Assembly: GCA_016928395.1 (NCBI GenBank)
Contig: JAFGKV010000114.1
Coordinates: 16,525 to 80,524, forward strand
From: Candidatus Fermentibacterota bacterium
GTDB lineage: Bacteria; JAFGKV01
DNA length: 64,000 nt
Direction of reading: 5' to 3'
The position numbers and the translations under genes are program-made. Below, one piece after another: positions 2,664 to 64,000 of the stretch. The notes beneath the pieces were generated by a model. That model searched no databases, was not told the DNA's origin, and worked only from the letters and a program-made list of their open reading frames with translations. The number at the start of each line of letters is the position of its first letter. Positions within the stretch are counted from its first letter, which is position 1.

Positions 2664-2889
2664 GATCGATGCTGGTGTCAGGGTTCGAGTCGCACGATCG
2701 ACATCATCCCATGGCGTCCTACGGTAGCGGTTCAATCCTAGGTTGGAGTCCGCTCCGATTCGGACCCTTCTGGTGCACGAGTCGAAGCGAGGGGACTTTC
2801 CCCTCACGCTTCGTCCTATGGTGTTCGAGACGTCGCACTCGGCGGGTTCCCATGAACCCTGAACCCTTCTCCACGCGTGGTTACCCGCT

Positions 2890-4194: not shown

Positions 4195-4514
4195 TTGCGA
4201 TTGTCTTCGTTGCCCTGCTATTCTTCGGGTTTCAGAACTCAGGTCAGATCGTGCAGCAGCTATGGATCGTACGTACGATCTACAACGTTCCGCTGCTGCT
4301 GGTGCTCCTGGCTTCATTTCTCCTGGGCATGGTCGTCATGTTCTTCATCGCCAGCGTCGAGTACTTTCGGATGCAGGCCAAGGTACGAGGCGTCCGCAAG
4401 GAACGGGATCGTTTGACTGAGCAGGCACAAGGTTTCCAGCGAATACCCCTCCAGGACATTGATGATGCCCTGACGGACAACGCGGACGACGCGGGCGGAG
4501 GAGGAATGGGATGA
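4170..4514 (+). CDS. lapA: LapA-like (DUF1049) inner-membrane protein
   Basis: 114 aa with two TM helices (WLVIAIVFVALLFFGF; LLLVLLASFLLGMVVMFFIA) and a charged C-terminus. Lies immediately upstream of, and overlapping, a LapB-like gene, which is the canonical lapA-lapB arrangement. Confidence 0.55.
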   Translation: MWFVRWLVIAIVFVALLFFGFQNSGQIVQQLWIVRTIYNVPLLLVLLASFLLGMVVMFFIASVEYFRMQAKVRGVRKERDRLTEQAQGFQRIPLQDIDDALTDNADDAGGGGMG

Positions 4515-5671: not shown

Positions 5672-5673
5672 GC

Positions 5674-6582: not shown

Positions 6583-6608
6583 CGGGGCAGTAGTGCCGTC
6601 GATGACCT

Positions 6609-9236
6609 ATGAATCGCCCCGCTGAGAACACCAGCGCCACAGGCAGGCGTACCGCAGGGGCCAAGACCGCGACCCCCATGATGCGCCAGTACTGGAGCGT
6701 GAAACGGCGCTATCCCGGCGCGTTGGTGCTGTTCAGACTGGGTGACTTCTACGAGACCTTCGGAGAAGACGCAGCCCTAGCTTCCAAAGTGCTGGGCATT
6801 GCCCTCACCTCCCGCGGCGGGGACATCCCTCTCGCCGGCATCCCATTTCACAGCGCGGACCCGTACATCGACCGTCTCGTGGCCGCCGGACACAAAGTGG
6901 CGATCTGCGAGCAGCTCGAGGACCCCGCAAAGGCCAAGGGCATCGTACGGCGGGACGTGGTACGCGTGGTCACTCCGGGCACGGTACTCAGTGAAGGGCT
7001 TCTCAACGCCGGGGCACCCACCTACCTGGCCGCCGTGAATCCGGGTCCCTCCCGCTGGGGGCTCGCCATCGTGGACATCGCTTCGGGTGAGTTCAAGGCC
7101 ACCGAACTCGCACTCAACGAAGTCGGCGAGGAAATCCAGCGCGTGTCGCCTGCGGAGCTGCTGGTACCCCGATGGCTACGGGACCAAGATGCGCTCCATC
7201 AGGTTCTGGCGGTCGTACCGCACGCAGCGGTGGAAGCCCGGGAGGATTGGGTATTTGACGGAGAGGCAGGCGCCGACCTGCTGAATCGTCACTTCGGAAC
7301 AGCCACGCTGGAGGGTTTCGGTCTTCACTCCGGCTGCGCCGCCGTCGGCGCAGCCGGTGCGGTGATTCACTATCTCCTGGAGACCCAGAAATCGGGACTT
7401 GGCCATATCAGGTCCCTCCGGGTGTATCATCTCTCCGAATTCATGCGCCTGGACCGGCATACGCGTCGGAACCTCGAACTCGTCGACTCCTTGGATCCCG
7501 ACGACAGGGACGTGACGCTGCTCGCGGCCCTGAATCGCACGTGTTCGCGCATGGGCGAGCGACTGCTGCGTCGTTGGATCCTGGAGCCGTTGCTTGACAT
7601 CGACGCCATTGAGGAACGGCTGGATGCCGTACAGGCTCTCGTGGATGACGACCTTGGGCGGTCAGAAGTGCGGGGTCTTCTTTCCTCCATGGCAGACATC
7701 GAACGCCTGACGGGTAGGATCGGATGTCGCGCCGCCTCGGCCCGCGATCTGGTCTCCTTGGCATCGTCTCTGGAGCATCTTCCCCGGCTTGCGGAGCAGC
7801 TGTCGAAGAGCACGAGCTCGTTCTTGGGGCAGACCGCCATGAAGCTTCGGGGTGAGCAGGAGATTGTCGAGGAGATCCACCGGGTCCTGGTTGACCGCCC
7901 GCCCCCTCACCTGCGGGCTGGCGGGTATGTACGCACCGGTTGCGATACGGCCCTGGATGAACTGCGAGCGGCCGCCCGCGACGGCAAGACCTGGCTGTCG
8001 GAACTGCAGCAGCGCGAGCGTGACGATACGGGGATCCCCAGCCTCCGGGTCGGTTTCAACCGGGTATTCGGGTTTTACATCGAGGTGACCAAGCCTCATC
8101 TACCCCGGGTGCCGGAGCGCTACCTCCGCAAGCAGACCCTGGCCAATGCGGAGCGCTTCTACACCGCGGAGCTGAAAGAGAAGGAATCGCTGATTCTGGG
8201 AGCCGAGGAGAGGGCGCTGGAGCGGGAACGCGAGCTGTTCGACGCGCTGCTCATTTGGCTGGAAATCAGGCTAACCGCTCTCCTGACCATGGCGTCAGCC
8301 GTGGCAACTGGGGACGTCATTCAGTCCCTGGCGCAGCTCGCCAGGGAGCGATCCTACCGGAGACCAGACATTGACAGCTCCGCTAGAATCTCCCTCTCAT
8401 CAAGCAGGCATCCCGTGGTGGAGCAACTCGGCACTGAGCCGTTCATGCCAAATGACGTTCTGCTTGACAACCAGGACCATCAGCTCGTCCTGCTCACGGG
8501 CCCCAATATGGCCGGTAAGTCGACCTATCTTCGCCAGGTCGGACTCATCGTCTTGATGGCCCAGATCGGCTCGTTTGTGCCGGCCGAGGCCGCGGAGATC
8601 GGCGTCGTGGATCAGATCTTCACCCGCGTCGGCGCCACTGATCGGTTGGCCCGGGGTCAGAGCACGTTCATGGTGGAGATGATCGAGACTGCGTCCATCC
8701 TGCATCATGCCACGGACAGGAGCCTCGTGCTCTTGGACGAGATCGGCCGGGGCACTAGTACGTACGACGGGCTCGCCATAGCCTGGTCTGTTGCCGAGCG
8801 CCTTCACCAGGGGCCAATGACACCACGGACCATATTCGCCACTCACTACCATGAGTTGACCGCGCTGGAGGCCGATTTCCCCCGCATCGTCAACTACAAC
8901 GTAGCGGTCCGCCGGGAGGGGGACCGGGTTCTGTTTCTCCACCGTATCCAACGGGGCGCAGCCAGCAGCTCCTACGGCATCGAAGTGGCCCGGCTTGCAG
9001 GGCTGCCAGCCGATGTCCTGCTGCGGGCAGCCGAGATTTTGGCTCAGCTGGAAGACCACCCCCCAGCCGCACGCACGCCCACGATCCGCAGAGCGGTATC
9101 CGACCAACTGGAGCTTTTCGGCGCCCCAGAGGATCCCCTCAAGTCTAGACTCCAGGGGCTTGTGGTCGACCAGATCACCCCGTTGCAGGCGCTGCACTTG
9201 CTCCACGAGCTCAAACGGCTGGCCCGGGACAAGTAG
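6609..9236 (+). CDS. mutS: DNA mismatch repair protein MutS
   Basis: N-terminal MMRQYWSVKRRYPGALVLFRLGDFYETFGEDA (mismatch-binding domain). Walker A GPNMAGKSTYLRQ. FATHYHELT and DEIGRGTSTYDG motifs. 875 aa. Confidence 0.92.
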   Translation: MNRPAENTSATGRRTAGAKTATPMMRQYWSVKRRYPGALVLFRLGDFYETFGEDAALASKVLGIALTSRGGDIPLAGIPFHSADPYIDRLVAAGHKVAICEQLEDPAKAKGIVRRDVVRVVTPGTVLSEGLLNAGAPTYLAAVNPGPSRWGLAIVDIASGEFKATELALNEVGEEIQRVSPAELLVPRWLRDQDALHQVLAVVPHAAVEAREDWVFDGEAGADLLNRHFGTATLEGFGLHSGCAAVGAAGAVIHYLLETQKSGLGHIRSLRVYHLSEFMRLDRHTRRNLELVDSLDPDDRDVTLLAALNRTCSRMGERLLRRWILEPLLDIDAIEERLDAVQALVDDDLGRSEVRGLLSSMADIERLTGRIGCRAASARDLVSLASSLEHLPRLAEQLSKSTSSFLGQTAMKLRGEQEIVEEIHRVLVDRPPPHLRAGGYVRTGCDTALDELRAAARDGKTWLSELQQRERDDTGIPSLRVGFNRVFGFYIEVTKPHLPRVPERYLRKQTLANAERFYTAELKEKESLILGAEERALERERELFDALLIWLEIRLTALLTMASAVATGDVIQSLAQLARERSYRRPDIDSSARISLSSSRHPVVEQLGTEPFMPNDVLLDNQDHQLVLLTGPNMAGKSTYLRQVGLIVLMAQIGSFVPAEAAEIGVVDQIFTRVGATDRLARGQSTFMVEMIETASILHHATDRSLVLLDEIGRGTSTYDGLAIAWSVAERLHQGPMTPRTIFATHYHELTALEADFPRIVNYNVAVRREGDRVLFLHRIQRGAASSSYGIEVARLAGLPADVLLRAAEILAQLEDHPPAARTPTIRRAVSDQLELFGAPEDPLKSRLQGLVVDQITPLQALHLLHELKRLARDK

Positions 9237-9237
9237 C

Positions 9238-10956
9238 ATGGCTCCCATCAGACTACTAAGCGAGCGTGTCATCAATCAGATCGCGGCAGGTGAAGTGATT
9301 GAGCGACCGGCTTCTGTGGTGAAGGAATTGGTCGAGAACTCCCTGGACGCTGGCGCGGAGTCGGTGACCGTCGAGGTGGACCGAGGCGGCACGCGACTGA
9401 TCCGTGTCAGCGACAATGGAGCCGGCATGTCCCGCGATAGTGCGCTGTTGTGCTTCGAGCGTCACGCCACCAGCAAGATCGTCACTGAGCATGACCTGTT
9501 CTCCGTGTCCAGTCTGGGATTCCGGGGAGAAGCCCTGGCCGCCATTGCGGCCGTGGCGAGGGTGGAGATTGAGACAGCGGAACACGACGCTCCAATCGGA
9601 ACGAGAGTCGCCCTGTCGGCTGGCGCCGTGGATGCCGTGGAGGATAGTGCGCGGCCGCCGGGCACCACCATCGCGGTGCGCCACCTCTTCTTCAATGTCC
9701 CGGTTCGCCGTGGGTTCCTTCGCAGCGTTGAGAGCGAGACGCGGGCAGTCATGGATGTCGTGTTCCGTATCGCCATAGCCAGGCCCGCGGTGCAGTTTCG
9801 CCTCGTGGTTGAGGGCCGGGAAGTATGGAATATGCCGCCAGTGGGCGATATGAAGGGACGGCTGCACCAGCTTATCGGGGCACAGCGAACTGATGAGCTC
9901 ATCCCCGTGCGGGCCTTGGCCCCCGGTGTCGCGGTGGAGGGGTTCGTGGGCGTACAGGCGGCCGCACGTTACAGCAGGCGCCAGCAGGTGGTGGCCATCA
10001 ACGGCAGGCCGGCGGATGCCCCTATCATACGCGCGGCGCTGGTGGAGCTGTTGCAGGGAGGAGGAGGAGGCCGGGCGGAGGCATACCTCTCACTGAGAAT
10101 CGATCCCTCGGCAGTCGATGTGAACGTGCATCCGGCCAAGCGCGAGGTGCGGTTCCGCGAGCCGGGCCGTATCCGCGCGGCCCTGGCCGCCGCCATCAAG
10201 GATGCTGCCGTGCGCGCAGGTACCCTAGCCCAGGAGTATCCAGTATCCACCGACGGTATGACACTGCAGAGGTCACCACAGCCCCGCTCCGCGGAGTTTC
10301 TGAGTCTTGTGGCGGAGGAGAGCGTCGCCTGGGAACACCTCGCCCGGTCCGAGGCTCCCACCGCGGGTAGCACCCGTGACACCCCGCCACGGGGCATCCC
10401 GCTCATCCAAATCGCCCGGACCTTCGTGGTCGCCAGGGTAGGCGATACGCTGACGGTATTTGACCAGCACGCCTGCCATGAGCGGATCATGTATGAAGAG
10501 ACTCTGAAACGATTGGCCGGCACCAGAGGCATGGCGCAACAGCTCCTCTTCCCCATCACGGTGGACCTGACCCCGCAGGAGCTCTCTCTGGCGCAGGAGT
10601 ATGAAGAGGAGCTTCGATTAGTCGGATTCGAGATCCGTCAGTTCGGCAGGGCCACAGTTATCGTGGAGGCGGTCCCGGCGGACTTCCAGGGAGAGGTGAA
10701 CGAAGAGCTGGTCCGCCAAGTGCTGGCAGGAATCGGGGAAGAGAAGGGAGCCATGGGCGGCCGGCATCACAGGGTTGCCAGCAGCATCGCATGTCATGCC
10801 TCCGTGCGTGCGGGCGACGCGCTACGCGACGAGCAGATGCGTGATCTGATCGATCGTCTCCTGGCTACCGAGGCGCCCCACACCTGTCCCCATGGTCGCC
10901 CGACCTTCATCCAGATTACCGCCCAAGAGCTGGAACGACGTTTCCAACGGGTCTGA
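9238..10956 (+). CDS. mutL: DNA mismatch repair protein MutL
   Basis: GHKL ATPase N-terminus MAPIRLLSERVINQIAAGEVIERPASVVKELVENSLDAGA. The start was chosen at the Met just after the mutS stop; the ORF track extends upstream to 8995 in the same frame. C-terminal dimerisation domain. Confidence 0.9.
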   Translation: MAPIRLLSERVINQIAAGEVIERPASVVKELVENSLDAGAESVTVEVDRGGTRLIRVSDNGAGMSRDSALLCFERHATSKIVTEHDLFSVSSLGFRGEALAAIAAVARVEIETAEHDAPIGTRVALSAGAVDAVEDSARPPGTTIAVRHLFFNVPVRRGFLRSVESETRAVMDVVFRIAIARPAVQFRLVVEGREVWNMPPVGDMKGRLHQLIGAQRTDELIPVRALAPGVAVEGFVGVQAAARYSRRQQVVAINGRPADAPIIRAALVELLQGGGGGRAEAYLSLRIDPSAVDVNVHPAKREVRFREPGRIRAALAAAIKDAAVRAGTLAQEYPVSTDGMTLQRSPQPRSAEFLSLVAEESVAWEHLARSEAPTAGSTRDTPPRGIPLIQIARTFVVARVGDTLTVFDQHACHERIMYEETLKRLAGTRGMAQQLLFPITVDLTPQELSLAQEYEEELRLVGFEIRQFGRATVIVEAVPADFQGEVNEELVRQVLAGIGEEKGAMGGRHHRVASSIACHASVRAGDALRDEQMRDLIDRLLATEAPHTCPHGRPTFIQITAQELERRFQRV

Positions 10957-52545: not shown

Positions 52546-54327
52546 CTACCTCCCGTCGGTACCGGGAGCCAGAAGATCCCCGGAATACAGGAATCGTTTT
52601 ACCTTGCGCGTAGTGGTTTTCTGGAATTCATCGGTCAGCACCTGGAAGCGGCGGATGCGAGCATAGGGCGGCAGGTCCTTGCCGGCCTCCCGAATCTCAC
52701 CGGCGATCAGCGCACGGATCGCCTCCATGGTCTGCGGGGTCCCCAAGGCCACGAAATGGCTGGCCACCTGTTCGAGGTCGGGATAGATCAGCGCGCCGAC
52801 CTCTTCTCCATAACCGGTGTGCCTTGGTATGCCCATCACCAGAGACTCCATGATACAAGGTCTACGATTCAGAAGGGTCTCAACTTCCTCGGGGTAGACA
52901 TTCTTACCGCCGGCGGTCACTATCACGTTCTTCTTGCGCCCCATGATCTGAAGGTAGCCGTCCGGGTGGATTTTGCCGAGATCGCCGGTGTGAAACCAGC
53001 CATCTTCGTCGAAGGCATCCACCGTGGCTTCTTCATTCTTGTAGTAGCCGACAAAAACATTCGGACCCCTTATACATACTTCACCGATCCCGCTTTCCCC
53101 GGGGTCGTCGATGCGGCACTCCACCCCCGGCAGCGGAAGCCCCACACACTCATGCCGAATCCTCCCGGGCGGCGTCGCATGAGTCAACGGGCTCGCCTCG
53201 GTGAGCCCAAACCCTTGGAGCAATGGAATGCCCAGGCGCGTGAAAAAGCGTGAGGTGGCCGGATCCAGCGGCGCCGCGCCCGTGACGAAGTAATGCACCG
53301 ACCCCAGCGATGCCTTGCGTCGAAGCCCCCGGAACAGCCTTCGACCCAGGGGCTTCCCGAACAGCTCGGCACCCCGTACGACTCCCATCAGCGTGCTGAA
53401 CAGGATTCGGGCCACGACCCCTTTCTTGCGCACATTGCGCATGATTCCCTCGTGCATCTTCTCGAAGAGCAGCGGCGCCGAGGCCATGGCAGTCACGCGA
53501 GTCGCGGAGATATCAGCCAGGAGGTCTGCGGTCTTGATGCTGCGGGCGTACGTGATAGCGCACCCGCAGTAGAACGGAAACAGGAAACCCGCGGTCGCTT
53601 CGAAACTGTGATGCATGGGCAGCATGGAGAGGAGCGTATCGCCCGGACCCAGCGGCAGAAGTTGGCTGCAGCCGGCCACATTGGACATGATATTCCGTTG
53701 GGTCAACATGACACCCTTGCTCTGCCCGGTGGTACCCGAAGTATAGAGTATGGCGGCCAGATCGCTCAATGATCGAGGTACAAGCTGCGCCGCGCTGGTG
53801 CTGCCTGCATCCAGAGCGAGGGACCACGGAGTCGCCCCCTCGGTGTTGTTCTCATCGAAACTGACGATGCGTTCGACCTTGGGCAACGGCTGTGCATCCG
53901 CGACGGTTGCAAGATAGCGCTCAGAGGTGAACAGCAGCCTCGATTCCGAGTGGGTGAGTAGTGTGCGTATACCGGAGGCGGGCTGCAGCCTGTCCACCGG
54001 CACGACCACGCCTCCCGCACACTGGATGGCAAGATAGGCCATACCCCACTCTGGCCTGTTTTCGCCCAGTATCGCAATGCGATCGCCATGCCGGATACCG
54101 ATGTCGACAAGCCACCGGGCGACACTCCACACCGCTTTGGCAAAGGCCGCGTAGGAAATCTCACGATGGTCCTCACCCGTCCACGCCCTCATCACCACGT
54201 GGGGCCCGAAATCCCGCGCGCTGCGTACAACAAGCTCGTCCAGGGGGAAGATGCCACGATCCGGACGGCACACTGGAAAAGACTGTGTCCTCATCGCCTG
54301 CGACTGCCTCCTACGCTCTACCCTCAA
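52546..54327 (-). CDS. Long-chain-fatty-acid--CoA ligase / AMP-dependent synthetase
   Basis: AMP-binding motif ILYTSGTTGQSKGVMLTQRNI. Conserved GYGLTE-like FGLTEASPL. C-terminal TAGGKNVYPEEVE. Confidence 0.8.
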   Translation of the reverse strand: MRVERRRQSQAMRTQSFPVCRPDRGIFPLDELVVRSARDFGPHVVMRAWTGEDHREISYAAFAKAVWSVARWLVDIGIRHGDRIAILGENRPEWGMAYLAIQCAGGVVVPVDRLQPASGIRTLLTHSESRLLFTSERYLATVADAQPLPKVERIVSFDENNTEGATPWSLALDAGSTSAAQLVPRSLSDLAAILYTSGTTGQSKGVMLTQRNIMSNVAGCSQLLPLGPGDTLLSMLPMHHSFEATAGFLFPFYCGCAITYARSIKTADLLADISATRVTAMASAPLLFEKMHEGIMRNVRKKGVVARILFSTLMGVVRGAELFGKPLGRRLFRGLRRKASLGSVHYFVTGAAPLDPATSRFFTRLGIPLLQGFGLTEASPLTHATPPGRIRHECVGLPLPGVECRIDDPGESGIGEVCIRGPNVFVGYYKNEEATVDAFDEDGWFHTGDLGKIHPDGYLQIMGRKKNVIVTAGGKNVYPEEVETLLNRRPCIMESLVMGIPRHTGYGEEVGALIYPDLEQVASHFVALGTPQTMEAIRALIAGEIREAGKDLPPYARIRRFQVLTDEFQKTTTRKVKRFLYSGDLLAPGTDGR

Positions 54328-54488
54328 TGCCTGAGACGGGCAACACCGTGCTGCTCGGAGTACGCGGGTGACGCCGGCTCGCCCGTGGGGTGCACTGTAC
54401 CTCTACTGGGAAACAAAATGCACTTCCCTCCGGCGCAAGGGTAGCGTCAGGTGGCCTCCCACAGGCAGGCCAAGCGGATCCAGAATAG

Positions 54489-54566
54489 GAATGGAACGAT
54501 GGATGGAAGAATGGATGGATGGATGGGTGGGTGGGTGGATGAATGGATGGATGAAGGGATAAATGG
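54489..54566. repeat. G-rich tetranucleotide microsatellite (GGAT)n/(GGGT)n/(GAAT GGAT)
   Basis: atggaacgatggatggaagaatggatggatggatgggtgggtgggtggatgaatggatggatgaagggataaatgg. Contains GGGTGGGTGGGTGG, a potential G-quadruplex. Confidence 0.85.
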
Positions 54567-54595
54567 GCCTTCTGGATTCTGAATACTGCCCAAGG

Positions 54596-54775
54596 TTGAC
54601 TGGCGGCTTCCCTTCGCTCGCAGGCGACAGGGTTCAGGGTTCGGGATTCAGGCTGTCGCCCCATCTCCTCACTCCTATCTCCTTACTCTTGAGCCTCTTC
54701 ACCTCTTTACTCTTTTGCCCCTTTGAGTCCTTTGTGCCTCTGGACCTTTCCGCCCGCGTGACGAGCCCGTAGTAA
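54596..54775. repeat. Mosaic intergenic repeat, copy D (CT-rich module ctcactcctatctcct shared with copy A)
   Basis: gggttcagggttcgggattcaggctgtcgcc...ctcctcactcctatctccttactcttgagcctcttcacctctttactc matches modules of copies A and C. Confidence 0.55.
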
Positions 54776-54784
54776 TCAATGGTT

Positions 54785-54814
54785 GAGGGCTCGGCCCCCG
54801 CGGGCCGAGCCCTC
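54785..54814 (-). terminator. 12-bp perfect GC hairpin (AGGGCTCGGCCC-ccgc-GGGCCGAGCCCT) 23 nt downstream of the W-rich protein gene
   Basis: Read directly. No T-tract, which is common in high-GC genomes. Confidence 0.35.
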
Positions 54815-54836
54815 TTCATCGACGCAGGATCAGTTG

Positions 54837-55823
54837 CTACCTGCGGGCAGTCCCCCTCGCTTGAATCCCGTCACTGTGTTGCGTGGATCGTGTCTGTGTC
54901 TGCCCAGGATCGCGGACACCTCCCGCCTGGCCTCGGTCCCGATCCCCAATGGGTCGCGAAGGCGCATCGCTTCGGACTTCATCGCCCTGCCGAGGTGGTC
55001 TCCCGTATTCTTCGCGGGTGGGCGAGGGTGACTCCGCGGGGCGATGGCGCTCAATGCTCCGCGGCTCCCTGGTCCTCTCCGGCTCTCGGGATCGCTCGAG
55101 ACGAGAGTCCCGCTCGTCCGTGGTCCTCTCCCGAACCACGCCACGGTCGCGGTGCGGCTGCATCGTACGTTCCACGCGCTCCGCCCCGGGTCGCTCCACT
55201 ACGACAGTGGCGATTTTGCCTGTCACTCTCTCAATGGTCTGCCGTTCGGGAGCCTGCCCAAGAGTGTACCCTCTCTTGTCACGACGATCATACTCGCGGG
55301 CGAAATCAGCCTTCACTTTTGTCTCCGGCAGACGCTCCTGGGAGAGCGAGGGCGAGAGGAACCCGTGGTTGCTCACCATAACCCACCGGCCATGATGGCG
55401 GTGGTAGTCTCTGTGGCGCCAGTAGCCGTAGCACCAGTCAGGCGAGGCAGGAGCCCACCCAATCCATCCCGGCCCGCTAATCCACACGACCCACGCGGGG
55501 GACCAGACTCGCCCGGGCACCCACACCCAGCCATGATGCGGGGTCCACAACCACCGCCCATAGTGATCAGTCAGATGACCCCACGGATCGTTGGATACCC
55601 ACATCCAGCCCCAGGGGCTCCAGGCCCAGTGACCGTGAAGGTAAGGCTGCCAGGTGACGTGGACCCTCGGCACCCACACCTCTCCCACGTCGGGCATCGA
55701 CACCCATCGGCCATGGAACGAGAGATCGTTGTCCCAGGAGAATCCGACGCTGGCGCTGATTCGGGCATGGGCGGGCAGTGCGGCGAGGAGAACGAGTGCG
55801 ACGACGATGCCTTTCATGATCAT
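54837..55823 (-). CDS. Exported Trp-rich repeat protein with RE-rich disordered C-terminus
   Basis: Signal MIMKGIVVALVLLAALPAHA. Repeats HGHWAWSPWGWMWVSNDPWGHLTDHYGRWLWTPHHGWVWVPGRVWSPAWVVWISGPGWIGWAP. The C-terminus is ERTREPRSIERHRPAESPSPTREEYGRPPRQGDE low-complexity. Confidence 0.45.
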   Translation of the reverse strand: MIMKGIVVALVLLAALPAHARISASVGFSWDNDLSFHGRWVSMPDVGEVWVPRVHVTWQPYLHGHWAWSPWGWMWVSNDPWGHLTDHYGRWLWTPHHGWVWVPGRVWSPAWVVWISGPGWIGWAPASPDWCYGYWRHRDYHRHHGRWVMVSNHGFLSPSLSQERLPETKVKADFAREYDRRDKRGYTLGQAPERQTIERVTGKIATVVVERPGAERVERTMQPHRDRGVVRERTTDERDSRLERSREPERTREPRSIERHRPAESPSPTREEYGRPPRQGDEVRSDAPSRPIGDRDRGQAGGVRDPGQTQTRSTQHSDGIQARGTARR

Positions 55824-56097
55824 CCTCCCATTGTCTGTGGTGAGTGAGGGCATCACAACGGTACTCACACACGACCGACATGCACAAGTCGTGCCCGAAT
55901 GCTGCCAACGACCAAAATGCCTTGTGCGGCAATGCATTCATCTGTACCCGACGCGAGGAGAGCCCATCCGATCCGCGACCTATACTCGGCATGACTGTCG
56001 CCCAATGAGGACGCAGTGAGGGTCAACGGCATCCTGTGCGCCTGAGCGAGGGAGCGACGCGAATCGTAGCCCTCATTTCCCCGAGAAGCCTTGGTGA

Positions 56098-56140
56098 ACC
56101 GTATAGGACTGATCATATATAGGACACGTCCTATATGCCG
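56098..56140. promoter_or_regulatory. AT-rich operator-like site: TATAGGAC-N10-TATAGGAC-AC-GTCCTATA
   Basis: gtataggactgatcatatataggacacgtcctatatgcc has two direct copies of TATAGGAC and an 18-nt perfect palindrome TATAGGACACGTCCTATA. It sits in a 1.1-kb divergent intergenic region with locally low GC. Confidence 0.35.
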
Positions 56141-56584
56141 CATTGACCGAAAGGGTTGACTCGCCGATCATTCGACACCCTGCGCGGGAGCACCGGCGTA
56201 CCTCTGTGGGGTGGCCTCTGGCCTGGAGAGCCCCGGTAGTTGGCTCGCACGAAGACCGGTCAAAGGGCCAAGAGCCTGGCTCACCTGACATGACGAAGGC
56301 ACTCTGCGAAGCGGGACTAACCTGTACCTTCACGCATCAACCTTAGAAGTTTCCCTATGTATGAGCAGGGCAATGCCCGGGGCCCCCACTACGCTGTAAC
56401 TTCATAGGGGAGCAGAGGTTCCCACGCAGAGCATGAGATCCAGCCGGAGGAATGAGGAGCCCGAATGTCATCACCCGGCGTGCCCGGGTGATCCAGAACT
56501 CGGTCGATATGCTCCTGCCTGGATTGCCGATCGAGTCGGGCAATGACGGGGGAGGTGTGGAAGTTGCACCATGTATCGTCCGGG

Positions 56585-56895
56585 CACGCCCGGGCCCCCA
56601 CTCGTACTCGGAGGTACGCCTCTCGATACCGATACCGATACCAATACCGACTCCGACCCCCGCCCACCCTGCGGGCGACCATAGACGGTCGCCCCTGCGA
56701 CGGCAACGGTTCCTCGTAGCGCTGGGCGGGCCTGGTAGATGAAGGCCGATAGCCACCAGCGGGCCGTACTCTCCACCTCAAAGGCCCCGGGTGCTCTCGC
56801 ATCCAGAGGCTTTACTGATGCGAGACACCGGTGAGCTATCCGCAGTCTGGGCTGTGCCTCGCAAGGCCAAGGTTGACTCGGCTTGCGTGAGGGCA
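56585..56895. repeat. Mosaic intergenic repeat, copy B (inverted relative to copy A; module order Z-X-Y)
   Basis: Reverse complement contains cagtaaagcctctggatgcgagagcacccggggcctttgaggtggagagtacggcc and ggctatcggcc...caggcccgcccagcgctacgaggaaccgttgccgtcgcaggggcgaccgtctatggtcgcccg plus ggtatcggtatcggtatcgaga. That is about 85% identical to the copy-A modules over more than 250 nt. Confidence 0.8.
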
Positions 56896-56987
56896 CGATG
56901 TCAGGTACGTTCGTCCCTCTTCCACCCTAATCGTGCAGTCTAGACGGCATCGGGGGCGGGCCGTGCTTCGGCGCCACTGAGACTCGG

Positions 56988-58808
56988 TTGACACAGATGA
57001 AAGACCGCATACAAGGCAAGGGAGTCGAAGGCTCCTCCCGGTCCAGCGTGCGCCTGCTCGCGGCCCTGTTGCTGCGTCACAAGCGGCAGATGACCATTGG
57101 GCTGTTGGGGCTCATCGGCGTCGACGCGCTCCAGCTTGTGATCCCCAAGATCACCCAGTACGTCGTGGATGATCTGGCCCGGGGCGTTGCCACCGTGCCG
57201 CGCCTCTGGGTCATGGGCGGTGCCATCGTGGGCGTTGCCGCACTCATGGCGGGCTGTCGGTTTGTCTGGCGTTTCTTTGTCATCCGATCCAGCCATCGCA
57301 TCGAGCGCGATCTGCGGCAGGATCTCTACGATCACCTCATCACTCTGTCGCCGCAGTTCTACGACGAGAATAAGGTTGGGGATTTGATGGCCCACGCCAC
57401 CAATGACTTGAACGCGGTGCGCATGGCCACGGGTATGGCCTCACTCGTCACCATCGACGCGCTATTCCTCGCTATCGCCTGCATCGGAATAATGGTGTCA
57501 ATGGACGCGCGACTCACGATGCTGGCTCTTCTGCCGCTTCCCCTGTTGTCCGTGGTCATGCTTCGGTTCGGGAGCCTGGTTCACGACCGGTTCACCGCGG
57601 TGCAAGATGCATTCTCCCGGCTCTCCGAACGCGTGCAGGAGAGCTTTTCCGGCATCCGCGTCGTCAAGGCCTACGGTGATGAAGAATCCGAGTTCCTTCA
57701 CTTCGCCCAGACTGCGGGACGCAGTCGCGACGAGAACATCAGGTTGGGCCGGCTCTGGGGCATGTTCGAGCCGCTCATCGGCGGATTGGCCCTGACCAGC
57801 ATAGCGATCCTGCTGGGTGCGGGCGGCCGGATGGTCGTATACGGGCGGATCTCCTTGGGTGAGTTCGTGGCATTCTTCAGCTACCTCCACATGCTCATCT
57901 GGCCCATGATGGCTGCGGGATGGGTCGTGAACATACTCCAGCGCGGCACCGCCAGCATGGACAGGCTTCAGACCCTCTTCCACACGCGGCCGGATATCGT
58001 GGGCGGGCATCTTGATGCACCGGATTCCCCATCCATCGCCGTGCACGACCTCTCCTTCTCGTACCCGGGGACCTCGGCTCCCGTGCTCAGGAACGTATCA
58101 TTCTCTTTGCGCGCCGGCGCGACGCTGGGAATCGTAGGGCGAACGGGTTCTGGCAAGACGACCCTCGTGGAGTTGCTCATGCGCCTCTATGACCCACCTC
58201 CCGGCACCGTGTTCATCGGTGATGTCGACGTGCGCACCATGGAGCTTCCCCGTCTCAGAGAGCTCTTCGGGTTTGTACCCCAGGAGACATTCCTGTTCGC
58301 GATGAGTATCGCGGACAACATCGCCTTCGGGTGCGACTCCCTCTCCCGTGATGAGGTAATCTCCCTGGGCATCGGTGCGCAGATCCACGATGAGGTAGTG
58401 AATTTCCCCGACGGATATGACACCATGATCGGTGAGCGCGGCGTTACCCTCTCCGGCGGCCAGAAGCAGCGCGTGGCTATCGCCAGGGCCATGGCCGTTC
58501 AGCCGCCTGTCCTGATACTGGACGATGCTCTCTCCAGCGTCGACACCGAAACGGAAGCAGCACTACAGGATGACGTGGCATTGAGACACGGCCGGACCAC
58601 GATTCTCATCGCCCACCGTATCAGCACGGTTCGCAATGCAGACCTCATTATCGTGCTGGATGATGGTCGACTCATCGATGCGGGGACACATGATGATCTG
58701 CTGCGTCGAGGCGGCTTCTATGCCGAACTGTTCCGCATGCAGCAGCAGGAGGAAGACCAATGCAGCGAACCGCCGGATGAAGGCCCATTCGAAGGGGCTG
58801 ACCTCTGA
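56988..58808 (+). CDS. ABC exporter, fused permease-ATPase (type I exporter, MsbA/ABCB-like), subunit 1
   Basis: Six N-terminal TM helices. Walker A GRTGSGKTT. Signature LSGGQKQRVAIARAM. Walker B ILILDDALSSVD. H-loop IAHRIST. Stop overlaps the next start (TGATG). Confidence 0.85.
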   Translation: MTQMKDRIQGKGVEGSSRSSVRLLAALLLRHKRQMTIGLLGLIGVDALQLVIPKITQYVVDDLARGVATVPRLWVMGGAIVGVAALMAGCRFVWRFFVIRSSHRIERDLRQDLYDHLITLSPQFYDENKVGDLMAHATNDLNAVRMATGMASLVTIDALFLAIACIGIMVSMDARLTMLALLPLPLLSVVMLRFGSLVHDRFTAVQDAFSRLSERVQESFSGIRVVKAYGDEESEFLHFAQTAGRSRDENIRLGRLWGMFEPLIGGLALTSIAILLGAGGRMVVYGRISLGEFVAFFSYLHMLIWPMMAAGWVVNILQRGTASMDRLQTLFHTRPDIVGGHLDAPDSPSIAVHDLSFSYPGTSAPVLRNVSFSLRAGATLGIVGRTGSGKTTLVELLMRLYDPPPGTVFIGDVDVRTMELPRLRELFGFVPQETFLFAMSIADNIAFGCDSLSRDEVISLGIGAQIHDEVVNFPDGYDTMIGERGVTLSGGQKQRVAIARAMAVQPPVLILDDALSSVDTETEAALQDDVALRHGRTTILIAHRISTVRNADLIIVLDDGRLIDAGTHDDLLRRGGFYAELFRMQQQEEDQCSEPPDEGPFEGADL

Positions 58809-60907
58809 TGCACGATTCCTTTGCCAGCGACTACGTGGAAGGCGCCGCCTATGATGGGGCCATGGTGCGACGCCTTCTCTCCTATGTCACGCCCCATCGC
58901 AGGCTGGTCCTGCTGGCCATGGCCTTCATGCTCTTCTCCACAACCCTTGAACTGCTCATCCCCTACATCACGAAAGTGGGAATAGACCGGTATCTGGCCC
59001 GCCTCTACCATGTCTATGAGGCGCCGGCGGCGTTCTGCGATTCGCTCATCGAGGCCGATCCTACTGGGAACGACTGCCTCCGCCTCGACGGGGGCGCCCT
59101 TCTGTTGCGCAAGGCATCGATGGAACGGTTCGATCCCGCGGCGCGTAGCCGTCTCACGGCCCGAGGCAGCCTCCAAAGCGAGACCTATTACGCATTCGAC
59201 GCCCACGCGCGGCACGCCGATGTCGGCGCGATCCGCGGAAGCTTCTGGCTTGTTCCGGAGGCGCAGTTATCGCGGGTGCCCCCGCGAGAGCTGGCCAGGC
59301 TGCGTTCCCAAGATCTGACGGGGATCACCCGTCTTGCTCTACTGGCGGCGGGCCTCATCATCGTGGGCATGGTCTCGGGGTATGGCCACGTGTATGCCTT
59401 ACAGATCGCCGGCCAACGATCAATGTATGACGTGCGAACGGCCCTATTCCGCCACATCCACTCGCTCTCCCTCTCATTCTTCGACAGGAATCCCATCGGA
59501 CGCCTGGTCACCCGGGCCACCAATGACATCGAGGCCCTGAACGAGATGTTCACCGCAGTGTTGGTGAATCTGGTGAAGGATGTGATTCTGGTTGTGGGTA
59601 CGGTCGCGATTCTCTGCGCCCTCAACCTCAGGCTGGCGCTCATAGCCCTGGCCGTGGTCCCCGTGTTCACCTTCGCGTCTGTCGTGTTCCGACGAAAGGC
59701 CCGAGGAGCGTACCGGGAAGTCAGGCGACTCCTGGCCCAACTCAACGCCACCTTGGCTGAAGACCTTTCCGGCATCAAGATCATCCAGGTCTTCAGGCGG
59801 GAACGCCACCGCAGAGACAGCTATCGCGCCATCAACGAGCAGTTCTTCGCCGCGAACATCCACCAACTGGTCATCTTCGGCGTCTTCCGGCCTCTCATCG
59901 AGTTGATCGCCACCACCGGCATCGCCTTGGTGCTGGTGTACGGCGGCATGGGCGTGCTGTCGGGCGGACTGACCCTGGGAGCATTGGTGGCGTTCCTCAG
60001 CTATGTGCGACAGATGTTCGAACCGCTTTCCGACATGAGCGAGAAATACAATATCATGCAGAGCGCCATGGCGTCATCCGAACGCATCTTCGGGATCATG
60101 GATGAAACGCCAACCATCCTGGAATCTCATGCACCGGTGCAGGCCGAAATCCGAGGCCGCGTGGTCTTCGACGACGTCTCGTTCTCCTACACACCCGGCC
60201 GGGCCGTACTCCGAAACGTCTCCTTTTCGGTGGAACCTGGCCACAGCGTCGCAATCGTTGGCCCTACCGGTGCAGGCAAAACCTCCCTCATTAATCTCCT
60301 GTGCAGGCTCTACGATCCCGACACCGGTCGCGTCATGCTGGACGGAGTTGACCTCCGGGATCTACCGCTGCGAACGCTTCGCCACAGTATCGCCGTGGTG
60401 CTTCAGGACGCATTCATCTTCAGCCGCAGCGTGGAAGACAATGTCCGCCTGGGAACCCCCATGGAGCGAAGCCAAATCACGCACGCGGCCGACATGGTGC
60501 AGGCCTCCGGTTTCATCGGACGCCTTCCGGGAAGATTCGACGAGATCATGGCGGAACGCGGCGCAACGCTCTCGACGGGGCAGAAGCAACTCCTCTGCTT
60601 TGCCCGGGCTTTGGCCCATGACCCGAAGATTCTCATCCTCGACGAAGCCACCAGCAGCGTCGATCCCGCGACGGAGCACCTCATCCAGCGAGCCATCGAA
60701 ACACTCATGACGGGCCGTACCAGCATCATAGTCGCCCACCGGCTCACCACCATCCAGCGCGCCGACGAGATCCTGGTCATCGACCATGGGCGAATTGTCG
60801 AGCGCGGGACACACCAGCAGCTTCTGGCACAACGGGGCATGTACTACAAGCTCTACTTGCTGCAGTATGTCCGGGCGGAGGAGCCTGAGACGGCGAGGGT
60901 TGAATGA
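58808..60907 (+). CDS. ABC exporter, fused permease-ATPase, subunit 2 (with ~80-aa insertion in TMD periplasmic loop)
   Basis: TM helices. Walker A GPTGAGKTS. Signature LSTGQKQLLCFARAL. Walker B ILILDEATSSVD. AHRLTT. About 100 aa longer than its partner. Confidence 0.85.
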   Translation: MHDSFASDYVEGAAYDGAMVRRLLSYVTPHRRLVLLAMAFMLFSTTLELLIPYITKVGIDRYLARLYHVYEAPAAFCDSLIEADPTGNDCLRLDGGALLLRKASMERFDPAARSRLTARGSLQSETYYAFDAHARHADVGAIRGSFWLVPEAQLSRVPPRELARLRSQDLTGITRLALLAAGLIIVGMVSGYGHVYALQIAGQRSMYDVRTALFRHIHSLSLSFFDRNPIGRLVTRATNDIEALNEMFTAVLVNLVKDVILVVGTVAILCALNLRLALIALAVVPVFTFASVVFRRKARGAYREVRRLLAQLNATLAEDLSGIKIIQVFRRERHRRDSYRAINEQFFAANIHQLVIFGVFRPLIELIATTGIALVLVYGGMGVLSGGLTLGALVAFLSYVRQMFEPLSDMSEKYNIMQSAMASSERIFGIMDETPTILESHAPVQAEIRGRVVFDDVSFSYTPGRAVLRNVSFSVEPGHSVAIVGPTGAGKTSLINLLCRLYDPDTGRVMLDGVDLRDLPLRTLRHSIAVVLQDAFIFSRSVEDNVRLGTPMERSQITHAADMVQASGFIGRLPGRFDEIMAERGATLSTGQKQLLCFARALAHDPKILILDEATSSVDPATEHLIQRAIETLMTGRTSIIVAHRLTTIQRADEILVIDHGRIVERGTHQQLLAQRGMYYKLYLLQYVRAEEPETARVE

Positions 60908-62721
60908 TCGCCGAAACGGTGGCCCCGGGAAGCCTGGTGCTGTACAAGGAACGGCCTGCCCGGGTGGCAGTCGTGGACGATCGACTGCAGATCGAAGTGC
61001 CCGGGGGAGAAACCTTGCGCGTCCGCCGCAAGGACATCCGGCTTCTCCATCCGGGCCCTCTGCGAAGCTTGGCAGACCTCCGTCCGCTGACCGGCGAGGC
61101 CGATGCCGCATGGGAGTTGCTGGCCGGCTCGACCACAACCTTGGAGGAACTGGCGGAGCTGGCATTCGGTGGGTTCACTCCGGAGACTGCCTGGGCCGCC
61201 TGGGAACTCATCCGCGATGGGATGCGATTTCAGGGCTCGCCCGAGCATGTGATCGTGGTCACTCCCGAAGAGGTGGCCCGGCGCCTGGCGTCCCGGGCCG
61301 TGGATGAGGGCAGACGAGCGAGGTGGGGCGAACTCATGAGCAGGATCCGCGCCAGGCAGATCAGCCCTGACGACAACAGCGCCTTGGCTGATTTAACCGA
61401 TCTGGCCCTTGGGCGGTCGGCCAGGAGTAAAATCTTGAGGGAACTGGGCCGGACGGAGAGCCCCGAAGAAGCGCACGCTCTCCTCCTCGATCTCGGCCAT
61501 TGGACAGCGCAGATCAATCCCTACCCAACCCGTCTGGGCCTACCGCTTGAAGCGCCGGCCATGCCGGTTTTCCCCGTGCCTGCCGAACCTCGCCGTGATC
61601 TCACCCATCACCAGGCCTTTGCCATCGACGATGATACGACCGGCATTGCGGATGATGCCCTCAGCCTTCATGACGGCCGGTTCTGGGTGCATGTGGCGGA
61701 TCCCGGTTCCTCGGTACTCCCCGGAGACGCCGCTGACCTGGAAGCCCGAGGCCGCGGCACGGCGCTGTATCTTCCCGAGCAGACAGTACCCATGTTCCCG
61801 GCCCAGGCGATCGCCATGTTCGGGCTCGGCTGTGCAGAGGTGTCGCCGGCGCTCTCGTTCAGCTTGGAGCTGACCTCCACCGGCGCCCGAGTGGCGGAGG
61901 TGTGCCCCTCACTGGTGCGGGTGCGGCGACTGACCTATGCCCAGGTCGAGGAGTGCCTCGGTGACGCACCATTCGCGACATTGCGTGAAGTGACCCGACG
62001 CTACCAGGAGTACCGCCAAGACCGCGGCGCGGTCTCCCTCGCCATCCCCGAAGTTGACGTCAAGGTCACGGAGGGAGGCGTCGTGGTGCGCCCCGTTCCG
62101 CAGACAAGCAGCCGGATTCTGGTTCAAGAAGCCATGATAATGGCGGGCGAGGCCACGGCGCGTTGGGCCTTGGATCGCAGCCTTCCCATGCCCTTTGCGT
62201 GCCAAGAGCTGGGCGGCATCGCGGGAGAGACCACAACGCTCTCCGCCATGTACGCGACCCGCCGGATCCTGCGGCCCCGGCAGTACCGGACTGCGGCATC
62301 CCGCCACGCCAGTCTCGGGCTGGATGCCTATGTTCAGGTAACAAGCCCGCTGCGGCGGTATCTGGATCTTGTGTCCCATCAGCAGATCAGGGCGGTGCTT
62401 GCGGGCCGGCCTCCGTTGGGGACGGCCGAGCTGGTCGAGCGCCTTGGTGCAGTAGAGGCTATCGGTGGGGCATTGCGCGCGGCCGAAGGGCTCTCCAACC
62501 GGCATTGGACACTGGTCTACCTTTTGGCTCGGCCCGGCTGGAGAGGACAGGGAACCGTTGTGGAGAAACGCGGCCGCACCGCCGTGATTCTGATCGAAGA
62601 ACTGGGTTTGGAAACATCCATGGTGCTCGGCGATGACGTTTCGTTGGACTCCACCGTGCCGCTGATCTTGATGGGCGTCAGCCTTGCCGGGCTGGAGGCT
62701 CACTTCCGAATTGGAGCATAG
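60904..62721 (+). CDS. RNB-domain exoribonuclease (RNase II/R family)
   Basis: RNB motif I AFAIDDDTTGIADDALS. WVHVADPGS. ALYLPEQTVPMFP...CSL-like FSLEL. ATGA overlap with the ABC subunit 2 stop. Confidence 0.65.
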   Translation: MIAETVAPGSLVLYKERPARVAVVDDRLQIEVPGGETLRVRRKDIRLLHPGPLRSLADLRPLTGEADAAWELLAGSTTTLEELAELAFGGFTPETAWAAWELIRDGMRFQGSPEHVIVVTPEEVARRLASRAVDEGRRARWGELMSRIRARQISPDDNSALADLTDLALGRSARSKILRELGRTESPEEAHALLLDLGHWTAQINPYPTRLGLPLEAPAMPVFPVPAEPRRDLTHHQAFAIDDDTTGIADDALSLHDGRFWVHVADPGSSVLPGDAADLEARGRGTALYLPEQTVPMFPAQAIAMFGLGCAEVSPALSFSLELTSTGARVAEVCPSLVRVRRLTYAQVEECLGDAPFATLREVTRRYQEYRQDRGAVSLAIPEVDVKVTEGGVVVRPVPQTSSRILVQEAMIMAGEATARWALDRSLPMPFACQELGGIAGETTTLSAMYATRRILRPRQYRTAASRHASLGLDAYVQVTSPLRRYLDLVSHQQIRAVLAGRPPLGTAELVERLGAVEAIGGALRAAEGLSNRHWTLVYLLARPGWRGQGTVVEKRGRTAVILIEELGLETSMVLGDDVSLDSTVPLILMGVSLAGLEAHFRIGA

Positions 62722-62933
62722 CTCCATGATTTCCACAAGGCCGGGGTCCCTGCTGCTGTCCCATTGACCACCGTGGGGACGCGTATAGTCTCCTTCCGGA
62801 GGAAGGTATCTTGGCGGATCGTTGCCCTTCAACCATGCAAGAGACGCTGCATGACCGTGCCGTTGGTTCGACCGTACCGGGCGACGGCGCACGGGCCTGT
62901 TCACCCGAGGAGCTCAAGTGCCATATCTGGCTC

Positions 62934-64000
62934 GTGCTCCTGGCCATCACCGCCTTCTGGGTTGCGTTCAAATCGCCCGTGGATCATGCGGGAAGTGATC
63001 CAAAGGGTACGCTCTTGACTTCCCAGGCAATCCTGGAAAGCGGTTCCGCCCGGCTGGATTCCTATGCCGCCCAAGACAACTCGTGGGTCAGCCCCGGGCA
63101 ACCCGACCGTTTCGTGAGCCGCCACGACCACATCTACTATCGCTTTCCCATGGCTCCGGCACTGGTGTCGCTGCCCTTCGTCTGGATGGCCAATCTCCAG
63201 GGGAAGGACATGCACAAACCCACCACGGACGCCGAAACTCAGAACCTGCTCTCTGCCCTCTTGGTCGCCGTATCGGTGCTTCTTGCATACTCGCTGGGCA
63301 GGCGGTTCGCCGACCCGATGCCCGCGCTCCTGCTCACCGTCGGCTTTGTATTCGGCGGGCCCATCATGAGCACCGGGGGAACGGCACTGTGGAACTCCGG
63401 AGTCGCCGCGTTGCTTGGCATTGCCGCGGTAATGCTGATGACCGACTTCGCGCGGGGGCAAAAGCCACCGATCGTCCTGCTCGCAATGCTCCTGGTGCTC
63501 TCCTTGTTCAGCAGGCCGACAATGGCAGTGCTGTTCGGCCTTTCGGTGCCGTATGTCTGGAAAGTGAGGCGTGACCTGTGGGTGCGGTTCACGGTGGTGT
63601 TGACGTGTACGAGCGTGGCGGTTTTTCTGGTGCATGTTCGCCTCTATGACGGGTGCCTGCTCGCCTACTATCACCCCTCCCGCATGGCGAGACCATGGTG
63701 GTTGCTGATGACCCTGGGTTGCGTGGCACTCGGTGGCGTATACCTCGGCCGGCGCCTGCTGCCTCGCCTGGCCAGGCAGAGCCTGCGCGGTTCGAACCGT
63801 GCGTCGTCCGGAGACGGAGTCGACCTCCGCATGATCAGGCCCTCTCGGCGAGTACGCGTGCTCTTCACGACGGCCTACGGACTCGCTCTGGCGATGCTCC
63901 TTGGCTTTCTCCTCTCCCTGCCCCGCATCCTCAACAGAAGCACTATCACCCGCACGTCGATCCTGCCCAACTATCGCGAGGTGACCGAAACGCTGCGGGC
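62934..64000 (+). CDS. Polytopic membrane protein, 3' partial (runs off window end); possibly glycosyltransferase-like
   Basis: Frame open from TGA at 62853 to nt 64000 and not present in the ORF track because no stop is reached. It has 8 or more hydrophobic helices (LLSALLVAVSVLLAYSL; IVLLAMLLVLSLF; WWLLMTLGCVALGGVYL). Start codon uncertain: GTG at 62934 or ATG near 63150. Confidence 0.35.
   Translation, partial: MLLAITAFWVAFKSPVDHAGSDPKGTLLTSQAILESGSARLDSYAAQDNSWVSPGQPDRFVSRHDHIYYRFPMAPALVSLPFVWMANLQGKDMHKPTTDAETQNLLSALLVAVSVLLAYSLGRRFADPMPALLLTVGFVFGGPIMSTGGTALWNSGVAALLGIAAVMLMTDFARGQKPPIVLLAMLLVLSLFSRPTMAVLFGLSVPYVWKVRRDLWVRFTVVLTCTSVAVFLVHVRLYDGCLLAYYHPSRMARPWWLLMTLGCVALGGVYLGRRLLPRLARQSLRGSNRASSGDGVDLRMIRPSRRVRVLFTTAYGLALAMLLGFLLSLPRILNRSTITRTSILPNYREVTETLR

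Follow-up and report, generated by a model that had tools for sequence, protein, structure and literature searches.

A predicted DrII-type RNase II encoded directly behind a heterodimeric ABC exporter pair in one clade of Candidatus Fermentibacterota

Heterodimeric ATP-binding cassette (ABC) exporters such as TM287/288 of Thermotoga, TmrAB of Thermus and BmrCD of Bacillus subtilis are encoded by two adjacent half-transporter genes. Among the exoribonucleases of the RNase II/R family, DrII (PDB 2R7D/2R7F) consists of a helix-turn-helix (HTH) domain, an RNB catalytic core and a C-terminal S1-like barrel; according to a passage of PMC5758563 that cites Schmier et al. 2012, the HTH domain takes the place of the cold-shock domains. 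Mitochondrial Dss1 (PDB 6F3H; PMC5758563), which has the Suv3 helicase as its partner, is built in the order N-terminal β-barrel, winged helix, HTH, RNB and S1. Here we describe a locus in which members of both families are encoded together. It lies in a stretch of 64,000 nucleotides from a Candidatus Fermentibacterota bacterium (JAFGKV01; contig JAFGKV010000114.1, positions 16,525 to 80,524), hereafter referred to as the window, and consists of two half-transporter genes, ABC1 and ABC2, followed directly by a gene for an RNB nuclease. As in ordinary translationally coupled bacterial operons, the genes overlap by 1 or 4 nt and a Shine-Dalgarno-like motif lies within an upstream gene. Unlike in such operons, no functional relation is known between the joined genes, and their coupling is limited to one small clade. 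The locus is probably a clade-restricted operon in which a housekeeping nuclease gene lacking its own promoter rides on the pump genes, with no biochemical link between the products.

Organization and conservation of the locus

The features of the locus are as follows.

56988-58808, plus strand: ABC1, an open reading frame (ORF) of 606 aa counted from TTG
58808-60907, plus strand: ABC2, an ORF of 699 aa
60904-62721, plus strand: RNB, a gene of the RNase II family, an ORF of 605 aa
58806-58810, plus strand: TGATG overlap of the ABC1 stop and ABC2 start (...ctcTGATGcac...; TGA 58806-58808, ATG 58808-58810, 1 nt common)
60904-60907, plus strand: ATGA overlap of the RNB start and ABC2 stop (...gttgaATGAtcg...; ATG 60904-60906, TGA 60905-60907, 4 nt)
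60895-60899, plus strand: Shine-Dalgarno-like GAGGG within the ABC2 3′ end, 4 nt ahead of the RNB ATG

The three-gene layout with both overlaps is confirmed as real, in agreement with a preliminary description of this DNA, made from the sequence alone, which had noted the TGATG and ATGA junctions. The same description had taken the products for a heterodimeric ABC exporter and an RNB exoribonuclease, and Pfam bears this out: ABC_membrane and ABC_tran domains were found in both subunits (146 and 102 bits, respectively, in ABC1) and an RNB domain in the third protein. All three frames show the excess of GC at third codon positions (GC3) typical of real genes, and the GC content is even over the region at 0.62–0.63 (0.63 for the RNB gene and 0.62 for its surroundings). 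Translation of ABC1 may start equally well at the TTG at 56988 or at an ATG three codons on, at 56997; the N-termini differ among relatives. A GAGG(G/A) motif occurs at the position equivalent to GAGGG in contigs L083, L084, L124 and L125, and AAGG occurs there in L082; a role of the motif in RNB translation is suggested by its sequence and placement.

The ATGA overlap of ABC2 and RNB was found to be identical in six contigs from independent samples (the window, L082, L083, L084, L124 and L125). These represent five lineages, L124 and L125 being of the same species. The overlap is maintained although the ABC2 tail diverges. In L082 all three genes and both overlaps recur between other flanks (61% identity for RNB, 77% for ABC1 and 74% for ABC2), and the full trio is also present in L124 and L125 (79% for ABC2 and 66% for RNB in L124). 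In L083 (RNB 77% identical) the ABC2 C-terminus closes in the same ATGA; in L084 (RNB 68% identical) only 34 nt of upstream sequence are available, and these encode an ABC2-like tail that again closes in ATGA. The 1-nt overlap of ABC1 and ABC2 is also called in L082, L124, L129 and L133. Pairwise synonymous divergence (dS) among the five lineages is about 1 or more, and the flanking genes differ. Loss of the coupling in relatives, which the preliminary description had named as a possible objection, was not seen in the closest ones, L082, L083, L084 and L124/L125, all of which carry it.

The window comes from a metagenome-assembled genome, and the arrangement might in principle be an artefact, arising from chimerism in the assembly, from a wrongly called start codon or from an RNB paralogue that is decaying and non-catalytic. 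We consider this extremely improbable. In favor of a mis-called start, the public gene call for L125 sets the RNB start at 2486, 57 nt past ABC2. However, the conserved overlapping ATG is present in this contig at 2426 (2426-3202) and the protein aligns from residue 1, so the discrepancy is an inconsistency of annotation, not a biological difference. The overlapping ATG is the sole start codon common to all six contigs, RNB homologues align from residues 1–10 onward, and the conserved residues G9, S10 and L11 lie upstream of any later start. Against a chimera, the same junction is present in six contigs obtained from independent samples with independent assemblers. The state of the catalytic residues is considered with the nuclease below.

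The pump pair is found throughout the phylum (ABC2 identity 59–79% across Fermentibacterota), and linkage to RNB occurs only in the clade with an ABC2 identity of at least 74%. At the loci compared, no RNB gene stands behind the pump pair in six lineages: L126 (Fermentibacter sp.), L127/128 (Aegiribacteria MLS_C), L129/130 (Sabulitectum), L131, L132 and L133. Their ABC2 proteins are 60–69% identical to that of the window, have the same length and contain the same insert, which is described below. Four of these six lineages (L126, L127/128, L129/130 and L131) share a gene context, PriA-amidohydrolase / M16-M16-small ORF-ABC1-ABC2, that was not found in the window, L001, L082 or L124. In this context (positions about 1-10100 in each case) PriA and the amidohydrolase are encoded on the minus strand, two genes code for M16 peptidases, and the small ORF of 103–119 aa belongs to no known family. 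The context hints that the native role of the pump may be tied to peptide processing or export. The linkage of pump and nuclease is real and old within the clade and restricted to it. A linkage across distantly related genomes was not found: it is missing from the six other lineages of Fermentibacterota and, with full-length neighbors assessable in about 86 of them, from 118 RNB loci of other phyla.

The overlaps themselves are ordinary. At eight Fermentibacterota loci, 70 co-directional junctions were collected, of which 13 (19%) are 4-nt overlaps, five are 1-nt overlaps and eight are overlaps of other lengths. After removal of the junctions of the genes in question, 4-nt overlaps still account for 9 of 60 (15%). 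Overlapping pairs without evident relation include PNP_UDP_1 with AIRS, and PriA with the amidohydrolase (8 nt). Further ATGA-type junctions are present in the window at 4511, 25685 and 26200, one of them in a LapA/LapB pair. What exceeds chance is the conservation of the overlap across contigs.

To place the nuclease gene among its relatives in other phyla, we used the best 80 of 569 RNB loci from a GTDB scan with one genome per species (Chloroflexota, Competibacteraceae, Tectimicrobiota, Planctomycetota and others) and 38 RNB loci from a JGI metagenome set, none of which exceeds about 55% identity. No same-strand ABC exporter was detected upstream of RNB in the best 80 of 569 GTDB loci or in the 38 JGI loci, and the pairing is indeed non-standard, as had been proposed. 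An ABC exporter lies within 10 kb of RNB in 5 of the best 80 GTDB loci, in each case on the strand opposite to RNB, a number close to chance expectation. Full-length neighbors could be assessed in about 86 of the 118 loci (80 GTDB and 38 JGI). The strand of the upstream neighbor is random (44 minus and 42 plus in 86 loci), and 82 different Pfam families were found upstream in 75 loci, the most frequent one in 7 of 75. No neighbor is conserved next to the RNB orthologues elsewhere. In L085 (575-3502), the nearest relative outside the clade with 54% identity, RNB shares 10 nt with an upstream gene of the ceramidase family, and only 4 nt separate RNB from the ASCH-domain gene that follows, another case of tight packing with unrelated neighbors. 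A full-text literature search revealed no report of an operon of an ABC exporter with an RNase II/R gene.

RNB identity amounts to 61–77% within the clade and about 50–56% for the nearest outsiders, of which the named ones belong to Chloroflexota, Tectimicrobiota and Competibacteraceae. This gap would be expected if the nuclease gene were a recent horizontal arrival at the 3′ end of the pump operon, where it captured expression signals, a special case of the operon outlined above. The absence of any Fermentibacterota genome from the best 80 of 569 GTDB species loci and the confinement of the linkage to one clade of a phylum-wide pump are in line with such an event. However, the window species is outside the GTDB representative set, so absence from this list of loci is weak evidence; moreover, no donor stands out, the outside relatives being about equally distant, and the GC content of the RNB gene matches that of its surroundings. 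A recent arrival is thus a possibility that we hold only tentatively and consider rather doubtful.

The nuclease and the pump pair

Pfam analysis of the 605-aa protein revealed RNB (PF00773, 165.1 bits, cut-off 29.3) and HTH_RNase_II (PF23161, 50.5 bits, cut-off 24.7). The wH_RNase_II and RNase_II_C_S1 families remained below their cut-offs (PF18614 at 21.4 versus 26.6 bits), and no cold-shock domain was matched. In an AlphaFold2 model with a predicted local distance difference test score (pLDDT) of 90.4, the protein is divided into a five-stranded β-barrel (residues 11–49), a winged helix (66–118), an HTH domain (121–210), the RNB domain (230–540) and an S1-like barrel (547–603). The latter, also of five strands, was modelled at pLDDT >90; the sequence alignment with PDB 2R7D reaches residue 571. 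This entry is the best solved sequence relative (1.8e-90 over residues 164–571), and Foldseek superimposed the model on 2r7d with TMt 0.92, a root-mean-square deviation (rmsd) of 2.1 Å and 40% identity. The features that the preliminary description had singled out for checking were thereby addressed: an S1-like barrel is modelled, a cold-shock domain is unmatched and the aspartates of motif I are in place.

The protein resembles DrII in having an HTH domain for the cold-shock domains and an RNB core, to which the model adds an S1-like barrel at the C-terminus. It differs in length (605 aa versus 469 in the solved DrII chain) and in its extra N-terminal barrel and winged helix. With these two domains the order is that of Dss1. 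Foldseek aligned Dss1 with the model over the full length (E 4.8e-25, 17% identity) at an rmsd of 24 Å, which reflects a differing domain arrangement. Whereas Dss1 works with the Suv3 helicase (PMC5758563), no helicase partner is linked to the window RNB. The Dss1 domain order is shared by the bacterial family of ~600-aa proteins to which the window RNB belongs (>3,000 homologues); the solved DrII chain is without the first two domains.

Motif I contains aspartates D242, D250 and D251 at spacings +0, +8 and +9, which, by the motif spacing, are the equivalents of D201, D209 and D210 of Escherichia coli RNase II. Together with D243 they are invariant in 25 homologues, as are R484, R485 and Y486 of TSPLRRYLD, which corresponds to motif IV (TSP-x-RRY). 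At the position of E. coli D207 the window protein has Ile248, a feature that would suit a decaying paralogue. This position is Asp in DrII, V or M in the clade and T, D, E, S or M over the ~600-aa family; because it varies across the family, we do not read Ile248 as a loss of activity. The ratio of nonsynonymous to synonymous substitution rates (dN/dS) of RNB is 0.10–0.23 in pairwise comparisons within the clade, near the 0.10–0.15 of the pump genes, and the frame is open over its full length in all lineages. The gene is thus under purifying selection with its catalytic motifs intact, and a degenerate, non-catalytic paralogue, which had been considered at the outset, is not what we found. Taken with the evidence on the junction, an artefact of any of these kinds is largely refuted and essentially excluded.

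Scores with curated NCBIfam equivalogs were 100 versus a cut-off of 597.85 bits for RNase R, and 68.3 versus 542 and 64.9 versus 641.9 bits for exoribonuclease II. Being so far below these cut-offs, the protein is not an orthologue of RNase R or of E. coli RNase II. Its sequence identifies it as an intact DrII-type RNase II, predicted to be a hydrolytic 3′-to-5′ exoribonuclease. By analogy, its task would most likely be trimming or degrading structured RNAs, presumably in the cytosol. Pfam, AlphaFold2 and Foldseek revealed nothing in addition to the standard architecture of the family, neither a membrane-binding domain nor a further one for docking.

For ABC1, the best single-half matches in PDB were BmrC (YheI, 5.6e-127) and TmrB (2.9e-114), and for ABC2 the matches were TmrA (1.9e-135), TM288 (2e-119) and BmrD (YheH, 6.2e-117). 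Foldseek with the AlphaFold2 model of ABC2 returned TmrA, BmrD, TM288 and MsRv1273c/72c as top matches, an order that agrees with the sequence ranking. ABC1 corresponds to BmrC/TmrB/TM287 and ABC2 to TmrA/TM288/BmrD, encoded side by side as in those systems. In ABC1, the Walker B motif LILD512-D513 carries Asp instead of the catalytic Glu and the signature LSGGQ (488–492) is canonical. ABC2 has a Walker A motif GPTGAGKT, a consensus Walker B (D612-E613) and a non-canonical signature LSTGQ (588–592), of which T590 is invariant in 34 of 34 homologues. The same division is seen in BmrCD, where BmrC has Asp (D500) for the catalytic Glu and BmrD retains Glu (E592). A degenerate ATP site would thus be formed by the Walker A/B motifs of ABC1 and LSTGQ of ABC2, and a consensus site by E613 of ABC2 and LSGGQ of ABC1. 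We conclude that the pump is a predicted heterodimeric exporter of type IV (ABCB-like) with one degenerate ATP site.

The preliminary description had raised the possibility of a characterized export family (lipid A, peptide or siderophore). None was assigned, as all scores with NCBIfam curated export families (MsbA lipid A, SmdAB, CydDC, HlyB/T1SS, bacteriocin and glucan) remained below the curated cut-offs. The best were 470 versus 845 bits for ABC1 with SmdA and 436 versus 602 bits for ABC2 with MsbA_lipidA.

One further domain of ABC2 has to be added to the features listed above.

58997-59305, plus strand: ABC2 insert, a folded α/β domain between transmembrane helices TM1 and TM2 (residues about 64–166, AlphaFold2 model)

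Residues 8–58 of TmrA align to ABC2 residues 13–63, and TmrA from residue 84 aligns to ABC2 from 184/185, giving a net insertion of ~95–100 aa. In the AlphaFold2 model (mean pLDDT 77, 75–87 in the insert region) residues 64–166 sit between helices 17–63 (TM1) and 167–219 (TM2). That the first periplasmic loop of subunit 2 contains an insertion had been proposed earlier; the position of the insertion is upheld by both the TmrA alignment and the model, and its size, given as ~80 aa, has to be corrected to about 95–100 aa. The insert is predicted to contain strands at residues 66–71, 90–94, 97–101, 121–131, 141–143 and 146–150 and helices at 74–83, 102–105, 110–119, 151–156 and 159–165. It is kept in 34 of 34 aligned homologues, with R101, T126, Y128, F130, W147 and V149 invariant and P150 nearly so.

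BmrD, like ABC2 the consensus-site subunit of its pump, likewise has a domain inserted between TM1 and TM2. That of BmrD has been described as mainly β-stranded, whereas the ABC2 insert is predicted to be mixed α/β and has no sequence similarity to it; residues 1–200 of ABC2 as a whole gave no sequence match to BmrD. In the Foldseek search, in which the chain was scored as a whole, BmrD was among the top matches and had the highest query-normalised TM (0.66–0.68). No Pfam family and no PDB sequence matched the insert. Among 1.84 billion representatives only seven matches were obtained, of which the good ones are pieces of proteins from this very ABC2 family. Two weak, repeated matches among the seven suggested a link to Kelch or FG-GAP proteins that we did not trust: residues 93–151 (window ~59084-59260) matched P0245 and P0246 with E of 5e-6 and 5e-4, in 4–6 repeated stretches of these large proteins. 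They may be due to chance or to a common small β motif. LapA/LapB-like genes in the same window suggest a diderm envelope, which would place the insert in the periplasm. We conclude that the ABC2 insert is a lineage-restricted domain, presumably on the periplasmic side.

Surroundings of the locus and expression signals

Two features flank the trio.

62811-64000, running off the window end, plus strand: gene X, first part of the coding region for a multi-pass membrane protein of 581 aa (full gene in L001, 2183-3928)
55938-56987, no strand: a stretch of ~1,050 bp ahead of ABC1 that lacks a convincing ORF (ORF list, GC3 filter)

Gene X begins 89 nt past RNB and has no Pfam or PDB match. Its homologues stand behind RNB in L083, L084 and L124 (56–82% identity) and not in L082, that is, in four of the five lineages counting the window. 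Gene X may be the fourth gene of the transcription unit. A gene of 550/591 aa that follows ABC2 in Sabulitectum was considered as a homologue of gene X and rejected, the two not being homologous; homology would have pointed to an insertion of RNB between ABC2 and gene X.

No terminator-like site and no promoter-like site above chance was found that would serve RNB or gene X alone, and no terminator-like site was found between the two; counts in the promoter and terminator scans were at or below the shuffle expectation, which makes them uninformative. The ~1,050-bp upstream stretch presumably holds the promoter of the pump genes. Its ORFs are all rich in Arg, Pro and Gly, and none passes the GC3 filter. 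A single σ70-like site, at 56143-56171, is at chance level. The gap upstream of ABC1 is not of constant length, relatives L082 and L124 having 268 and 405 bp, respectively. In the window it contains a 22-nt inverted repeat (arms 56474-56495 and 56572-56593) and a tandem repeat (CGATAC)x4.5 at 56624-56650. An Rfam search of 54000-64000 (E<=1) revealed no RNA or leader upstream of the pump. The sole match, IRES_Bip at 60652-60719 on the minus strand within ABC2, scored 22.3 bits versus a gathering threshold of 40 and was discarded as chance.

At 54837-55937, on the minus strand and diverging from the pump genes, lies a gene for a DUF6600 protein (94.6 bits) whose long C-terminal tail is rich in Arg, Glu and Asp. 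Elsewhere in the window, at 2890-5671 on the plus strand, a MiaB-like radical SAM/TRAM gene is followed by a LapA-domain gene and a LapB-like gene (TPR and zinc ribbon), the last two overlapping by 4 nt. Judged by their sequences, LapA and LapB point to a lipopolysaccharide-bearing outer membrane.

Interpretation of the pump-nuclease linkage

We think it likely that two independent, ordinary modules, a phylum-wide pump and a DrII-type RNase II, came together by gene order. In one sub-lineage the nuclease gene would have come to lie directly behind ABC2 without an evident promoter of its own and, lacking one, would be transcribed together with the pump genes. Its translation would depend either on termination at the ABC2 stop codon followed by reinitiation of the same ribosomes at the overlapping ATG, or on fresh initiation at the GAGG motif; both co-transcription and reinitiation are inferred from the arrangement. 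Breaking the 4-nt overlap would then strip the nuclease gene of its expression signals. The arrangement would persist because separation silences the nuclease gene, not because the proteins cooperate, and we infer that no biochemical link exists between pump and nuclease. The functional module implied by the preliminary description was not supported: the pump pair is free of RNB in six lineages, RNB has no constant neighbor and the overlaps are routine.

Several observations weigh against a nuclease gene that merely rides on the pump operon. The promoter scan relied on the σ70 consensus, which may not fit this phylum. In the alignment of 34 homologues, an extended C-terminal tail of ABC2 coincides exactly with the RNB-linked clade; such a tail would also fit a junction remodelled when the genes were joined. 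The comparison with RNB-free lineages was made at the level of loci, and the RNB-linked pump could possibly be a second, specialised copy, just as other Fermentibacterota might have the nuclease gene at another site in their genomes. Finally, the trio was retained as a block over five lineages at saturated dS while the flanks changed, which by the usual logic of comparative genomics is evidence, albeit weak, for selection on co-expression.

The retention of the block with its identical ATGA, and the presence of the membrane protein gene X behind RNB in most lineages, would also be expected if pump and nuclease were co-produced to act together. Tight translational coupling can favor matched synthesis and co-translational assembly, which counts in the same direction. 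Such a link might take several forms. The nuclease could be tethered to the membrane via the nucleotide-binding domains of the pump; both could belong to one stress response, BmrCD-type pumps being induced by ribosome-targeting drugs and RNase II/R enzymes clearing stalled or damaged RNA; or the pump could export nucleotides or RNA fragments freed by the nuclease. However, in all the remaining lineages sampled each partner is conserved without the other, the nuclease has the standard architecture of its family with no membrane-binding or docking domain, overlaps of this type are common between unrelated neighbors, and the literature search returned no paper on such a pairing. We therefore regard a functional link as unlikely. 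More improbable still is its most specific version, in which the exoribonuclease is assembled co-translationally on the cytoplasmic face of the exporter, either as a membrane-anchored station for RNA decay or trimming or with the pump disposing of the nuclease products. If it were true, ABC1-ABC2-RNB, often with gene X next, would be a genuine functional module. Such a reading, if right, would amount to a new way of anchoring RNA decay at the membrane.

A clade-restricted operon with a nuclease gene riding on the pump genes calls for no new kind of system: the parts are new members of known families, and the gene order is a clade-specific feature. The pairing is undescribed in the literature found by full-text search, yet it is not in itself surprising, and as it stands the finding matters little. 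It documents a DrII-type RNase II co-encoded with a BmrCD/TmrAB-type exporter in a poorly sampled branch of an uncultured phylum, as well as a phylum-specific periplasmic domain on the pump. It also carries a caution: a tight and conserved overlap of unrelated genes need not mean joint function.

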